NCBI GenBank assembly: GCA_951406725.2
Contig: OX597825.1
Span: 69,750,001 to 69,814,000, forward strand
Source of the DNA: Octopus vulgaris
Lineage: Eukaryota
Direction: 5' to 3'
Length of the DNA: 64,000 nt
Shown here: piece after piece, positions 9,822 through 61,889 of the stretch
Position numbering within the stretch: position 1 is the stretch's first letter
Layout: each line of letters opens with the position of its first letter
Notes under the pieces: model-generated
The model's input: the letters and a program-made list of their open reading frames with translations, nothing else
Database searches by the model: none
Told to the model about the DNA's origin: nothing
Program-made: the position numbers and the translations under genes

Positions 9822-9951
9822 TAGTTCTATATTTAAGAGATGAGGAATTATGTACATTATTTACATTATTCACATTTGACGGACATATGGCGTAGTGGTT
9901 CAGAGCACGGGCTACTAACCCCAAGATTCCCTGTTCGATTCCAGACAGTGA

Positions 9952-9982
<31 letters not shown>

Positions 9983-10137
9983 GATAATAAATGCAATAAC
10001 ATCGATAAATACCTTAGGAATGAGAACTTAGGTTCGAAATTTCCCCAAGCCACCTGATGAAGGCTGCAAGGTATATCAGCTGAAACGTTGTGTTAACAAG
10101 ATAAGGACAAATATTCGTCAAATGTAAATAATGTAAT
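9822..10137 (+). mobile_element. tRNA-headed, hammerhead-tailed short retroelement with inverted terminal copy
   Basis: A box TGGCGTAGTGG 9888-9898, B box GTTCGATTCC 9933-9942, (AAT)n spacer, hammerhead 10051-10092; 9853-9886 is an inverted copy of 10111-10135. Confidence 0.72.
10051..10092 (+). ncRNA. Minimal type I hammerhead ribozyme motif
   Basis: cac-CTGATGA-a-ggctg...cagct-GAAAC-GTT-gtg; palindromic AACGTT stem III of the dimer-cleaving type. Confidence 0.75.
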
Positions 10138-10231
10138 TAATCTGTCATCCATTTTGACTTACGTCATATTTTGCTCATATAGAGCACTAACTAGGTACGC
10201 TGTAAAAAGGTTTCCCTTTTTTCTCACTATT

Positions 10232-38619: not shown

Positions 38620-39605
38620 AGAGATCCAGTTTTATCTTGTTTGGTCATGTTGAATCTTGCCCTTCGTTAATAGTTTCTTTAGGTTATGTGGTTGCTTTTT
38701 GCTTAAAATAAGTGCTTGATTTGTTATTATGTTTTGTAATTTTTTACTGTTTTATGATTGGTAAATTTGTTTTGATGATGTTAAAATGTTTTGGCGATAC
38801 GGATTGGGTGTTACTAGGAATGGTATTGTGTTACTAGGAATGGTATTGTGTTACTTTGATGGGTTCGTCTTTTTCGTGTTGCACTAAATTGTTCTGATTG
38901 TATATCTTTTACACAATGTAGGCTATTTTCTATAAGTAGGGGAGGGTAATTTTGCTTAAGCAGAAATACTTTGATTTCTATAAATTGTATGTTTCTGGTG
39001 CTTGGATCGTTGACAATATTACAAATTTTCTTGGCTAGACAGAACGCGATGTTGCGTTTTTTGTGTTGTGTGGCATTATTTGAAATTTAGCTACTGGTGT
39101 GTATCTGTGCTTTTGTAATAAACATCAGTTGTGATTGTGATGTTGATTCTAATTACCATTATGTCAAGGAATGGTAACTGCGTGCTGTTTATTTCTTTTG
39201 TGAATTTGAGACTAGGGTATTGTGAATTTGAGACTAGGGTATAGATTATTGAGGAAGGTGCTGAATTCTTCCAAATTTTCTAGGGAATGGGTCCAAATTC
39301 GAAAACAGTCATCGAGGTATCTTTTCCATTTGTCCTCTACATGTCTTTCAATGGTCATGCCTTAGTTCTCTTCAACTTTTTTTTTATGTAGGTTTAGTTC
39401 CAATTTTCCCAGTACTGAGTTCGCGAAAACTGGAACAAAACGCGTCCCCATAGTTGTACCCCGAATTTGGAAGTATTTTGTCTTTTTCCGTTGAAAAAGG
39501 AATGGATTGTTTTCGAGGATGAGATGGACCGCGTCTAGTACGAAGGTTACTGTAAATCTACTGGGGATAGCTTCTCTACGTTTCTCAACTCGATATTTTA
39601 TGGCA
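38620..39605 (-). mobile_element. Penelope-like element reverse transcriptase relic
   Basis: Minus strand LILENNPF...YFQIRGTTMGTRFVPVFAN, KWKRYLDDCF, LPFLDIMV, TDVYYKSTDT: PLE-type RT motifs; stops present. Confidence 0.85.
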
Positions 39606-39612
39606 TATATTG

Positions 39613-39821
39613 GCAGCGAGCTGGCACAAATGTTAGCACGCCGGGTAACATTCTTAGCGGTATCTTGTCTGTCCTTACGTACTGAGTTCAAATTCCGCCG
39701 AGGTGAACTTTGCCTTTTATACTTTCGGGGTCGATAAATTAAGTGCTAGTTGCGTACTGGGGTCGATGTAATCGTCTGGCCATCTCCCACCATAATTTCG
39801 GGCTTTGAGCATAGAGAAGAA

Positions 39822-48988: not shown

Positions 48989-50660
48989 GAAAGTGTTAGG
49001 AAAAATGCCGAATTGGAATTGTCCAGGACCAGGTTTAGTTCAAGGGTACTGGCTAAATAAATTTAGTAGTTTACATGGGAGTCTGAGGGAACAATTTCAG
49101 GATTGCCTTGATAAAAGAATGATATCAGATTGGATGACTAGAGGGAGGACAATACTCATTTTGAAAGATAAGAACAAGGGTAATACAGCTAGTAACTATA
49201 GACCAATCACTTGCTTACCATCAGTATGAAAATTGTTAACAGGAATGCTTTTAGAAAGCATTTACGAGCACTTTGACAACCAGAATTTACTGTCAGAAGA
49301 ACAGAAAAGTTGCAGGAAGAAGGCTAGACGAACGAATGATCTATTATACATAGACAAAGCAGTTCCAAATGAATTAAAAGCTAGAAAGGAAAATCTAACA
49401 ATAACATAGATAGATTATAGGAAAGACTATGACATGATCCCACGCACTCATAGATAAATGAATGTTTGTGTCTATTAAGTATAGCAGACGACACAAGAGA
49501 ATTAATTAGCTGTAACGAAGAAGTGGAAAGTAGATCTCACACAGGTGATATACTCTTCAGGAATGTTGATATCAAAAGAGAAATTTTCCAGGGTGACTTT
49601 AATGTTTATCTTATGTTAGATCCCCCTCAGCTTAGCAGAAATAGTAAGAGAAAATTTACCATTGGCTCTACATGGATGATCAGAAACTGTTTAGTAAGAA
49701 TGAAACAGAGAGTGAGAGAGAGATATTCCTTAATACAGACTGTAAGACTCTTATGCAAAGATATAGGCATGGAATTTGGCATAGATAAATGTGCAATATT
49801 AGTCATGAGAAGGCAACAGGTAGTAAAAAGAGAAGGCATCCAAATACCAGATGGCGAGACAATAAAATCATTGAAAGGAGAAAGTCATAGGTATCTAAGA
49901 GTATTAGAATCTCACAAGGTACAAACTATAGAAATTAAAACGGAAATTGAGGGATACGTCAGAAGTCTGCGGAAGCTGATGAAACCAAAACTAAATGGCC
50001 AGAACCTAGTGAAGGGTGTAAATACTTTGGCAGTATCATTCCATATATACTCAGCAGCTTTTGTAGATTGGACAACAACTGAACTAGCAAAGCTAGACAG
50101 AAGAACTAGGAAGAAATCCAATGTAAATAAAGAACACCATCCACGAGTAGGAGTAGCAAGATTATACTTACCCAGAAAGGAAGGAGGGAGAGAGTTGATA
50201 TCAGTAGAAGACTGCATGGAGTTAGCTAGAGTAGATATAGGCTCCTACGTAGGTAATAGCGAAGTAAGTTTTTTATTTAAATCACAAGACATAGGGAAAC
50301 CAAAAACGCAAACGAAGTCAAAAGCCTGAAAAAAGAACAGACATTACCTAACTGGCAGGAGAAGGCGTTGCATGATAGATTACCAAGGATAGTTGTCGTA
50401 AATAGTATTAGTGAGGCGTGGTTATGGTTGCAGAAAGAAAAGCTGAAAAGGAAGACAGGGAGTTTGTTAGTAGCAGCATAAGATCACGTATTTGGGACTA
50501 ATTGGATAACAGCCAAGATAGACAAAAGCCAAGTAGATTCCCAATGTAGGTTATGCAAGTTAAAAGAAGAAAGCGTTACTCATATAGTAAGCGAATGTAG
50601 TATGCTGGCACAGAAAGAATACAAGAAAAGACATAACAACCTAAATAAAAGACATGACAA
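48989..50660 (+). mobile_element. R4/Dong-clade non-LTR retrotransposon, 5'-truncated and decayed
   Basis: KMPNW..PGPG.VQGYWL, GRTILILKD, NYRPITCL, DIGMEFGIDKC, RLYLPRKEGGR and CCHC knuckle CRLCKLKEESVTHIVSEC; (TAA)n on both flanks. Confidence 0.88.
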
Positions 50661-50707
50661 CTTTGATGGCATGCACTGTTCTCTCACTCAATAATAATAA
50701 TAATAAC

Positions 50708-50778
<71 letters not shown>

Positions 50779-51749: not shown

Positions 51750-52022
<273 letters not shown>

Positions 52023-52229
52023 GTATATATGTATGAATTGAATATTATGTTTACGCAGTGTTCCTGCTCGCCTAACTCCTTGCTCTAAAATATCTCTTCC
52101 TCAAAAGAATGAGGAGTGTGCGATGTAATTAACTATTTGTTAAGAATTTCATTGAAAAGGGACTTTCGAAAATTTCATGCAAGTGACACAGTAATTGTTT
52201 AAATGTCAATAGCGACTATACACATATAT

Positions 52230-57244: not shown

Positions 57245-59431
57245 GTCTGTCTTGATAGACAATGGGTCGCGCCAAGGGTGGGGCCTACTTTGATGATGAG
57301 CAGCGTCTGCTGTGACTGAACAGTCCAATTCCAGAGTGGCAGTCCCTGGTACAGTTGCTGCACACGAACATCGATGGGTACGTGTGGGGTGTTGCTGCAG
57401 TTGTCCTCCTCCTGTCCCGCCTGTCCGACCGCAGCTGTGCTCTCCTTTCCTCAGCCATGGAAACACCTTTCCTCACTGTCCGACGCCAGGCAGAGCGGTC
57501 AGCAGCTGTTACCTCCCACGTGTCCACACAGATGTTGGCAGTCCTCAGGTGGCGCTTGCACACATCCCTGTATCGTAGCTGTGGACGTCCCTTGGGTCGG
57601 GATCCCGTGGTGAGTTCGCTGTACAGGCATGCGACCGTCCTGCATGCGGAGGACGTGTCCGAGCCAGCGCAGTCTTCTCCGCACGAGGAGGGCATGCATG
57701 CTTGGCATATTAGTCTGTTTTAGGATGACTCCGTTTGGTACTCGGTCCTTCGAGGAGATGCCAAGGATCCGTCGAAAACACCGCATGTGGAAGCCGCTGA
57801 GGCGGCATTCTTGCCGGGTGTATGTTGTCCAGCTCTCGCTGCCGTAGAGTAGGGTGCTCAGCACGCAGGCTCGGTACACTGCGATCTTGGTGGTTATTGT
57901 GAGCATGTTGTTTTCCCACACTCTCCTGGAGAGCTTAGCCATGGCAGCAGCAGCCTTCCCAATCCGTCTGTTCAGCTCCGGCTCGAGGGACAGGCTGCTG
58001 GAGACCGTCGATCCCAGGTAAGTGAACACGTTCACCACCTGCAAGCTGTGGTCGCCGACACTGATGCTGGGGACCCCTCCGACGTCCTGGCCCATGATCT
58101 CTGTCTTTTTCAGGCCGATGATAAGGCCGAACTCTTGGCAGGCATCCGCCAGGGAGCTGACCAGCCTCTGGAGACCCGGCTGGTTGTGTGATGTTAGGGC
58201 GGCATCGTCAGCAAAGAGGATCTCTCTGATCAGCACCTGACGGACTTTGGTCTTAGCTCTGAGGCGCGCAAGATTGAACAATTCACCATCAGCCCTGGTG
58301 TGGAGGAACACTCCGTTGTCGGACGTTCTGAAGGCATAGGACAGGACAAGGGAGAAGAAAATTCCGAAGAGCGTCGGCGCCAGAACGCAACATTGTTTCA
58401 CTCCACTCTGCATGGGGAACGACTCCGAGGGCGATCCGTCAAACTGCACTGTTCCCATCGTGAAAGGAAACATACCGTCGTAAAAGGAGGTGATGAGTTT
58501 CAGCAGTCTGGGAGGGCAACCTATCCTACCCAGGAGCGCAAACAGCCCCTCCCTGCTGACTGAGTCGAACGCCTTAGCCAGGTCGATGAAGGCCACGTAT
58601 AGGGGCTGTCTCTGTTCTCGACTCTTTTCTTGAAGCTGCCTGAGTGAGAAGATCATGTCGATTGTAGACCTCTCTGCCCTAAAGCCAGACTGAGACTCGG
58701 GGTACACACGCTCTGCAAGCATTTGCAACCTCTTCAGGACCACCCTGACAAATGCCTTACCGACAGTGCTGAGCAGTGATATGCCCCTGTAATTATTACA
58801 GTCGCTTCTGTCCCCTTTGTTTTTATACAGTGTGATGATGTTTGTGTCACGCATATCCTTAGGGACAGAGCCCTCCTCCCAGCACTGATAGAGCAGCTCG
58901 TGGAGATGGCCCAGAAGGGCTGGCTTCCCGCACTGGATGACTTCTGCGGGGATGCCGTCTTGCCCTGGTGCCTTGCCCCGAGCGAGTGAGTCAATTGCTT
59001 TGCTCAGTTCTTCCTTTGTTGGAGGCAGGTCAAGCTCCTCCATGACAGGCAGAGCAGGAATGCCGGCGAGGGCAGACCTGGTGACCACATTCTCAGTGGA
59101 GTAGAGGTTCTGGTAATGCTCGACCCACCTCTCCATCTGCTTCGCTTGGTCCTTGATGACCTCGCCATCCCTGGACTTCAGTGGAGCAACCTTGCTGACA
59201 GTGGGCCCGAATGCTTTCTTTATCCCCTCGTACATCCCTTTCAGGTTACCACTGTCAGCACAGCACTGGATGTTCTGGCATAAGTTCTGCCAGTAGATGT
59301 TGGCGCAACGTCTGGCCGTCCTCTGGGCGTCGCTTCTGGCTGTTCTCAGAGTAGCCAGGTTCTTTTCTGATGGGTCGCGCTTATAGTTGACCAGTGCTTC
59401 CCTCTTGGCAGCAATGACAGGCTCCATCTCA
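57245..59431 (-). mobile_element. RTE-clade LINE, 5'-truncated, near-intact RT ORF with one frameshift near 57630
   Basis: KAPGQDGIPAE, NYRGISLLS, AFIDLAKAFDSV, LFADD, FTYLGS, RLRWLGHV; the second frame continues LYSEL..GSRPKGRPQLRY to a C-terminal Cys/His motif; short 3' UTR into a microsatellite. Confidence 0.95.
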
Positions 59432-59577
59432 GGCAGGTGAGCTTCTGCCTGTCTGTCTATATATATATATATATATATAAAACATATGTACGTATATTTT
59501 CATAGGTATATAAATGTCCGCATATATGTGTGGTTGTATATGTATATGTGTGTGCGTGTTTATGTATACATATCGTG

Positions 59578-60688: not shown

Positions 60689-60853
60689 ACACACATATGA
60701 ATATGAGACGATCGATCTTCAATCAGCGGCTCATGAAGGAAGATGCAGGTGGTTGGTAAAATTTTCCTTTGTCTAAAGGCACAAGGGCTGAAATTTGTGG
60801 AGTGGTTGATAGTTAATTACATCGACCCCTGTCCTCGATTGTTGCTTGTATTA

Positions 60854-61823
60854 AGGCGGTGAGCTGGCTCAATCGTTAGCACGCCGGGCGAAATGCTCAG
60901 CGGTATTTCGTCTGCCCATACATTCTGAGTTCAAATTCCGGCGAGGTCGACTTTGTCTTTCATCCTTTCGGGATCCATAAATTAAGGACCAGTTACGCAC
61001 TGGGGTCGATGTAATCGACTTAATACCTATGTCTGTCCTTGTTTGTCGTCTCTGTGTTTAGCCCCTTGTGGGTAGTAAAGAAATAGGTACTTCGTCTGCC
61101 GCTACGTTCTGAGTTCAAATTCCTCCGAGGTCAACTTTGCCTTTCATCCTTTCGGGGTCCATAAATTAAGGACCAGTTTAGCACTGGGTTCGATGTAATC
61201 GACTTAATCCGTTTGTCTGTCCTTGTTTGTCGTCTCTGTGTTTAGCCCCTTGTAGGTAGTAAAGAAATACGTATTTCGTCTGCCGCTACGTTCTGAGTTC
61301 AAATTCCGGCGAGGTCGACTTTGCCTTTCATCCTTTCGGGGTCCATGAATTAAGTACCAGTTACGCACTGGGGTCGATGTAATCGGACTTAATCCGTTTG
61401 TCTGTCCTTGTTTGTCGTCTCTGTGTTTAGCCCCTTGTGGGTAGTAAAGAAATAGGTATTTCCTCTGCCGCTACGTTCTGAGTTCAAATTCCGGCGAGGT
61501 CGACTTTGCCTTTCATCCTTTCGGGGTCCATGAATTAAGGACCAGTTACGCACTGGGGTCGATGTAATCGACTTAATCCGTTTGTCTGTCCTTGTTTGTC
61601 GTCTCTGTGTTTAGCCCCTTGTGGGCAGCAAAGAAATAGGTATTTCGTCTGCCGCTACGTTCTGAGTTCAAATTCCGCCGAGGTCGACTTTGCCTTTCAT
61701 CCTTTCGGGGTCCATGAATTAAGTACCAGTTACGCACTGGGGTCGATGTAATCGACTTAATCCGTTTGTCTGTCCTTGTTTGTCCTCTCTGAGTTTATCC
61801 CCTTGTGGGTAGTAAAGAAATAG
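60854..61823 (+). mobile_element. SINE family B pentamer: 49-bp head plus five 184-bp units within one TSD
   Basis: Units start at 60903, 61087, 61271, 61456 and 61640; TSD attgttgSttgtatta at 60838-60853 and 61824-61839. Confidence 0.92.
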
Positions 61824-61889
61824 ATTGTTGGTTGTATTATCCACCACGAAAGAAAAAAAAAAGGTAAAATCTACAACGGCAGAATATGG

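Follow-up and report, generated by a model that had tools for sequence, protein, structure and literature searches.

The analysed window is a 64,000-nt stretch of the Octopus vulgaris genome (assembly GCA_951406725.2, contig OX597825.1, positions 69,750,001 to 69,814,000, forward strand). Near its left end it carries a short composite repeat, which an earlier note, made from the letters alone, had described as a tRNA-headed SINE borrowing the terminus of a Penelope-like element (PLE). The features of this copy, and of a second one, are as follows (window coordinates).

9823..9889, minus strand: inverted arm, truncated on its 5' side, which comprises the final 67 nt of the pseudo-LTR tail up to the long 3' end of the family
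9878..9881, no strand: overlap of about 4 nt at the joint of inverted arm and head (window sequence compared with family copies)
9881..9953, plus strand: tRNA-like head in tRNA register (+1 = 9881), a piece of the PLE pseudo-LTR
9888..9898, plus strand: A box (sequence, and a PWM built from the genome's own tRNAs)
9933..9942, plus strand: B box, 45 nt past the A box (sequence and PWM)
about 9956..9994, plus strand: (AAT)n tract of variable length
9995..10137, plus strand: tail, made up of the PLE ORF's 5' leader and opening codons, with the family's short 3' end at about 10135
10020..10022, plus strand: first in-frame ATG of the PLE ORF, the frame being broken at codon 4 in this copy
10049..10094, plus strand: minimal type I hammerhead, decayed, with core at 10054-10060 (whole core span 10054-10089)
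10062-10066/10077-10081, plus strand: hammerhead stem II, with the predicted cut after 10089
51865..52025, plus strand: second copy, with head from tRNA -6, a small internal deletion, a long (AAT)n tract and then the letters of the short 3' end

The two boxes and the end of the head at 9953 lie within the tRNA-like head first reported at 9888-9953, and the (AAT)n spacer described after it is present as well. The inverted duplication noted between 9853-9886 and 10111-10135 is a real inverted arm, but its true extent is 9823-9889, a segment that shows 95.5% identity to tail positions 121-187 of a copy with the full family tail (L023). The right end (10108-10141) is matched by 9856-9889 alone, at 85%; the outer ~35 nt of the inverted arm correspond to the optional long end of the family, which is missing on the right side. 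This copy is thus laid out with its long end on the left (9823) and its short end on the right, and no clear target duplication was found around it. The overlap at 9878..9881 is likely a microhomology joint, judging from the sequences that meet there. The second head at 51865 also exists as reported, with 93% identity over 102 nt including the AAT tract; that copy has no tail, which was probably lost by deletion.

The tRNA character of the head was supported by two measures. The A and B box score of the 250 nt upstream of the hammerhead was equalled by 7 of 10,000 shuffles, and a profile of the genome's own tRNAs gave three heads 11.6-15.5 bits, with shuffled targets reaching at most 8.2. ARAGORN and Rfam made no tRNA call on the head. 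When heads were aligned to 26 tRNA sequences of this genome, which cover few isotypes, Arg-TCG was the best match for three of four heads and no single parent could be named; tRNA-Thr was discarded as a parent when its motif search returned no matches. A cluster of seven tRNA-Cys-type genes plus pseudogenes within 3 kb was also seen at another locus (L256).

Exact-motif searches of the 2.8-Gb genome, in which all controls gave 0, returned 2794 matches for the hammerhead core, 3772 for the long 3' end and 4793 for the head start, which points to about 10^4 insertions by our own estimate allowing for ~5% non-CpG divergence. Among the central arms of 68 loci picked on the head, the tail follows within 400 nt in 55 and within 1300 nt in 61; in most of the 13 far or unlinked arms, the (AAT)n tract is where a different repeat or a break is found. 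An unrelated tRNA SINE and a PLE fragment might have been nested by chance, as the tailless copy at 51865 and the seven of 68 arms with no tail within 1300 nt would allow; however, 61 of 68 arms are linked, the gaps mostly hold other repeats that entered at (AAT)n, and the head occupies a fixed place in a PLE, so that such nesting can be regarded as excluded for practical purposes. Head and tail are one mobile unit, as the earlier note had proposed.

In many copies, other elements that end in AAT have inserted at the (AAT)n tract. Two LINE-like 3' ends, putatively of the Dong/R4-like type, were found inside it, one in L006, L021, L194, L201 and L240 and the other in L010, L236 and L248. An abundant non-coding repeat of ~580 nt, which ends in (AAT)n (L110, 1621-2200), also enters the tract, and its last 53 nt occur in the window at 50660-50712. 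Elsewhere in the window there are stop-free frames of 666 codons (57502-59499, minus strand) and 291 codons (49454-50326, plus strand), presumably pieces of RTE-like and Dong/R4-like LINE ORFs, respectively, as well as a tandem run with a 184-nt period (60833-61869), which belongs to another dispersed repeat family.

Because the head follows a PLE stop codon and the tail runs into a PLE ORF, it is nearly certain that head, (AAT)n and tail constitute the pseudo-LTR of a Penelope/Poseidon-type PLE of the same genome. The order of this element is ORF with its stop, ~30 nt, tRNA-like head, (AAT)n, ATG, hammerhead and ORF again. An RT motif of the Penelope/Poseidon type, used as a query, had 127 exact matches in the genome (control 0), and the 100 matches listed form one family. 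A head on the same strand was present downstream of this motif in 19 of 30 loci; 17 of the 19 lie ~1.0-1.2 kb past the motif and ~30 nt past the stop codon, and (AAT)n and the tail usually come next. Of 40 ORF-start loci, 24 (one of them the query's own) carry the tail ahead of the ORF, and pseudo-LTR tandems were seen in these 24 loci and in L134. The tail is thus shared with an ORF-bearing PLE, and the tail, whose 3' part is the start of the PLE ORF, is not a conventional LINE 3' UTR. The notion of a SINE that borrows a PLE terminus has to be given up in this form, since the tRNA-like head sits inside an autonomous-type PLE (19 of 30 loci).

The start of the PLE ORF aligns with an intact 847-aa protein (P0004; 39% identity over 198 aa, E 6e-36), and the alignment takes in the residues encoded by the hammerhead. 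The RT domain was recognized as RVT_1 (E 4e-9) on a natural frame of the family. Natural C-terminal frames read CxC..YKGET..EEH..ADH, which corresponds to the motif of CCHH-type GIY-YIG domains; the Pfam GIY-YIG model had no match on two such frames and gave E 0.23 on P0004, so this assignment is one by motif. The column-majority frame is open for at least 806 codons, no intact copy of the ORF was seen, and ORF pieces are ~84-89% identical to one natural copy. According to the linker-finger criterion for the Penelope/Poseidon clade, as given in the accessible part of PMC8557442, a CX2-5CxxC finger is absent from the family and from P0001 and P0004, while it is present in another PLE family of this genome (L111). 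An RT tree, built without named clade references, separates the two families.

The second family is young (L111, 1439-3784, and many GIY-YIG matches) and has many intact 781-aa frames; it carries the linker zinc finger and a hammerhead variant of U3 type, and its ends run into (AT)n. This abundant family, found through GIY-YIG, was rejected as the partner of the window copy, having a different hammerhead and no tail match in 30 loci. The window also contains a decayed RT fragment of another PLE (38659-39619, minus strand), which matches L111 at 24-40%. A local tandem derived from the PLE (G000:C2:16238331-16239098) repeats its stop-to-head junction motif six times, at intervals of 150 nt. The idea that the PLE 3' UTR goes back to an inverted head copy, left as a relic, was dropped, as its score was not above shuffles, and no relative of the family was found in viral contigs.

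The hammerhead of the family fits the 'minimal' PLE type in having an extra base after A9, a palindromic 15.2-16.2 and a short stem I, traits that we compared with the available description in PMC4209133. As for the window motif, first placed at 10051-10092, the core (10054-10089) and the minimal PLE traits are there, but the copy is decayed, with G10.1-U11.1 in place of G-C and one mismatch in stem I. Rfam detected no hammerhead in the window copy, and the window monomer did not fold as one (z +0.65). In the family, the core is intact in 24 of 62 copies from a set not picked on the core. The first two pairs of stem I are kept in 16 of 16 cells (the family and seven relatives), in a comparison where stem II was part of the search rule and two further mis-anchored rows were left out. 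Among the first 100 matches listed, close pairs of hammerheads numbered five and were on opposite strands.

The ends of the copies provide information on how they were made. In 198 arms not picked on the 3' end, two 3' end classes lie ~35 nt apart (85 long, 99 short, 14 other). The back-to-back pairs (n = 104) combine one long with one short end in 90 cases, two long ends in two and two short ends in two, ten being unclear, and the long-short combination was also found in 54 of 64 inverted pairs from sets not picked on the 3' end. The inverted copy can thus be read as a PLE insertion signature, as had been suggested for the window. A direct repeat of at least 8 nt flanks 55 of 104 inverted pairs, in comparison with 1.8% in shuffled pairings, and the target duplications are mostly 7-13 nt long; target duplications and inverted ends, formerly posed as alternatives, therefore occur together. 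An inverted partner is present in 80 of 106 head-reaching arms. Within the 90 pairs, the short-end arm reaches further 5' in 51, the long-end arm in 23, both equally in 15, and one pair could not be scored. Given the former 51 pairs, fold-back copying of the partner cannot in general account for the long arm, and two separate primings per insertion would fit better.

At the 5' side, 75 of the 106 distinct head-reaching arms, which were not picked on the head, end by BLAST at -9 to +20. Exact reading of 55 arms with an anchorable A box (picked neither on the head nor on the upstream end) placed 46 ends at -7 to +7, while nine arms enter the PLE body; an apparent cluster at -13 to -19 proved to be an artefact that arose when fold-back junctions were aligned. 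Of the 55 arms, 12, counted among the 46, fold back at a small palindrome that spans the head start. In the whole genome, the 4793 matches of the head motif face 837 for a PLE body motif ~25 nt upstream (5.7 to 1), a ratio that is approximate because the two patterns differ in degeneracy. As to long copies, the upstream pseudo-LTR reaches the head start in six; three stop there (+4, -1 and -6) and three run through the upstream head into the end of the previous ORF (-60, -65 and -300), so read-through RNAs or tandem joins exist. A seventh upstream pseudo-LTR ends inside the head.

The simplest reading of these ends is an RNA that starts ~6 nt before tRNA +1, together with some multi-unit read-through RNAs. 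The palindrome at the head start could itself cause RT stops and is a real rival cause. An RNase P-type cut at +1 was rejected as the source of the 5' ends, because many non-inverted arms keep templated bases at -1 to -5. Three raw RNA-seq runs of a related species showed no pile-up of starts or ends at the head or the cut site; these runs are unstranded, with reads mostly <95% alike, and are uninformative on promoter or cleavage. Among the records listed as containing the family, none was of RNA type.

On the basis of the genomic sequence, we consider it probable that the tRNA-like head marks the RNA start and acts as the internal promoter of the PLE, presumably for Pol III. A promoter of this kind would explain the thousands of short copies beginning exactly at the head. 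T-runs were examined as Pol III terminators. TTTT is absent from the PLE sense strand over 2692 column-majority positions (mean of codon shuffles 2.8, P 0.03), while the second PLE family of the genome, a control of equal T content, contains eight TTTT and three TTTTT; the absence of TTTTT itself is uninformative (P 0.6). The stop-to-ATG spacer of ~150 nt, filled by head and (AAT)n, has no T-run, compared with 6-10 in each of three relatives' spacers. Of 34 ORFs of relatives, five are free of TTTT, all of them shorter than 480 codons, and none of eight longer than 690 codons is; three of these eight have only 1-2. Two long relative ORFs with only 1-2 TTTT have no detected A and B boxes. T-run absence is therefore a weak, suggestive signal of Pol III.

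A and B boxes were also detected between the stop codon and the hammerhead of one relative (L308), a PLE with a 918-codon open frame, at a score reached by 0 of 10,000 shuffles and in one of 18 pre-hammerhead regions of relatives. On this metagenome contig (2756-2986), the boxes lie 56-57 nt apart and are followed by AAT repeats. The relative was spotted after the fact, its 2.8-kb unit has two TTTT, and its head scored 6.4 bits in the whole-tRNA profile test, which is not above shuffles. It stands on a separate branch of the RT tree, and tRNA promoters may have been captured more than once among PLEs. A strong tRNA match in another relative (L331) lies where the ORF body belongs and was set aside as a separate insertion.

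Alternatively, the head may be a passive remnant, left when a tRNA or SINE long ago inserted into the pseudo-LTR of a PLE transcribed by Pol II, with the pile-up of 5' ends produced by RT stop or fold-back at the palindrome or by a coincident Pol II start. The 12 fold-back junctions among 55 arms, a predicted hairpin across the head start (calculated without a shuffle control) and the read-through copies are in line with this. So are the PLE promoters mapped in the literature surveyed, which concern two elements, Penelope and Chlamys, and are both internal and of Pol II type with an intron (PMC2377424 and PMC8557442, in the parts available). Nevertheless, most ends are found at -7 to +1, beyond the stem's 3' side, and this also holds for arms whose junction is with unique flank or with tail sequence; the T-run-free spacer and the A and B boxes at the same place in L308, on its separate RT-tree branch, likewise speak against a relic. 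We regard this explanation as rather improbable.

Returning to the internal tRNA-like promoter, the strongest form of this reading would be an autonomous PLE in which a captured tRNA promoter drives Pol III transcription of the whole element, whose 2.4-kb ORF has been cleared of T-run terminators and whose own two-site priming yields SINE look-alikes. As a prediction from sequence, this full form seems possible, falling somewhat short of an even chance. Pol III RNAs are uncapped and usually short, and the translation of a 2.6-kb RNA is therefore unexplained.

A further explanation, compatible with an internal promoter in the PLE, is a true SINE partner: solo head and tail copies would be transcribed by Pol III, mobilized in trans by the PLE protein and form lineages of their own. 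Heads exceed the upstream PLE body by 5.7 to 1, which is above one short product per long one, and CpG changes are fewer in short copies (~0.20 versus 0.25-0.28 in long ones, P 0.03), a deficit that may also reflect methylation or age. In addition, 38 of 90 pairs have a long-end arm that extends at least as far 5' as its partner, which would allow some solo copies to contain both priming sites. On the other hand, the sole clear linked variant set occurs in both long (10 of 51) and short (12 of 96) copies at one site, and non-CpG divergence is equal (0.053 versus 0.049, P 0.7); these common variants and equal divergence also tell against the borrowed terminus of the earlier note. No short-only variant set or lineage was found in a small sample of 107 short and 53 long copies, and a search of 1.41 Mb of loci from this genome, chiefly ones selected through the PLE family, gave no family with the head on another tail. 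According to the accessible sections of PMC11167929, the template of Anolis Poseidon needs ORF sequence to +172, beyond the priming sites, which solo copies do not contain. Overall, a SINE partner appears unlikely, though less so than a passive relic.

For the internal-promoter reading, we propose the following mechanism. The tRNA-like segment, which separates successive ORF copies, would be the internal promoter, from which RNA would start ~6 nt before tRNA +1. By analogy with Anolis Poseidon, as far as described in the available text of PMC11167929, the protein would nick both strands of AT-rich DNA and prime one cDNA per internal site, and the two cDNAs would be joined through short overlaps into back-to-back arms. 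Short copies are likely cDNAs primed by the PLE enzyme inside the ORF start and extended to the 5' end of the RNA. With the RNA start set and the priming site varying, priming in the first pseudo-LTR would give the 300-nt 'SINE', while priming in a downstream pseudo-LTR would give long copies; each copy that reaches the head would regenerate the internal promoter. The window copy would then be a dead short product of the PLE.

Much of this architecture has precedents, which we compare here as far as the accessible portions of the cited papers describe them. PLE pseudo-LTRs, inverted arms, one-sided tails and non-autonomous PLEs have already been described (PMC8557442). The octopus layout agrees with that of Anolis Poseidon, whose ORF has its start inside the hammerhead and whose 'tail' is the stretch of ORF that separates two internal sites of RT initiation (PMC11167929). 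The octopus family shares with Penelope/Poseidon PLEs (Anolis PAc, PMC11167929; D. virilis, PMC2377424) a single ORF with RT and C-terminal GIY-YIG-type domains, pseudo-LTR tandems, inverted truncated arms, an optional 30-40-nt tail at one end, a minimal hammerhead overlapping the ORF start and, for its probable promoter, an internal position. Unlike Penelope, whose internal promoter is Pol II-like with a 75-bp intron (PMC2377424), the octopus pseudo-LTR has a tRNA-like A/B-box segment of full length together with (AAT)n, and ~80% of head-bearing octopus arms start at this segment, which sets them apart from known Penelope/Poseidon PLEs.

Similar to tRNA-derived SINEs, the octopus unit is short and high-copy and has a tRNA-like 5' head with A and B boxes, and at least 8 nt of target duplication accompanies 55 of 104 insertions; it differs in lacking a LINE-derived or simple-repeat 3' end and in being, as a whole, a piece of an autonomous element. 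The SINE-like SMalpha and Sjalpha of Schistosoma carry hammerheads (PMC8490949), and SMalpha, judged from descriptions, resembles the octopus unit in having one in its body; the back-to-back arms with unequal ends distinguish the octopus unit from tRNA-derived SINEs including these two. TRIMp3 elements (Cassandra, Helenus and Ajax; PMC10886601) likewise hold a Pol III promoter of small-RNA-derived type inside a terminal repeat, but they are non-autonomous LTR elements with PBS and PPT, while the octopus tRNA segment lies in an ORF-bearing PLE. Their layout of direct LTRs around PBS and PPT without coding sequence is absent here, the octopus repeats flanking a PLE ORF or forming inverted arms. 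In the same paper it is argued that autonomous elements, including the partners of TRIMp3, must use Pol II. Animal non-LTR retrozymes, which were proposed to be PLE derivatives (bioRxiv 10.64898/2026.07.22.740005; PMC7761336), are short non-coding hammerhead repeats related to PLE pseudo-LTRs, as the octopus copies are; they form head-to-tail tandems whose units each carry a type I hammerhead, whereas octopus copies are dispersed and mostly back-to-back, and their available descriptions mention no tRNA head.

What is new here is that a PLE of autonomous type contains a tRNA-like A/B-box segment. A full-text literature search, in the passages it returned, gave no tRNA-derived segment in the pseudo-LTR of an ORF-bearing PLE, while a Repbase, Dfam or SINEBase entry may exist; the O. 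vulgaris repeat annotation, in the text passages and supplement available, reports no such tRNA-bearing PLE. Such copies are probably annotated as unclassified SINEs. The family also supplies genomic statistics for the PLE mechanism, with long and short ends paired in 90 of 104 cases and duplications of 7-13 nt; such pairing would result if the two nicked strands did not share a priming site but each used its own of the two internal sites known in vitro. If true, a tRNA promoter in an ORF-bearing PLE would blur the divide between SINEs and autonomous elements, would raise the question of how an uncapped 2.6-kb RNA gets translated, and would open a direct path by which PLE-dependent SINEs could arise.
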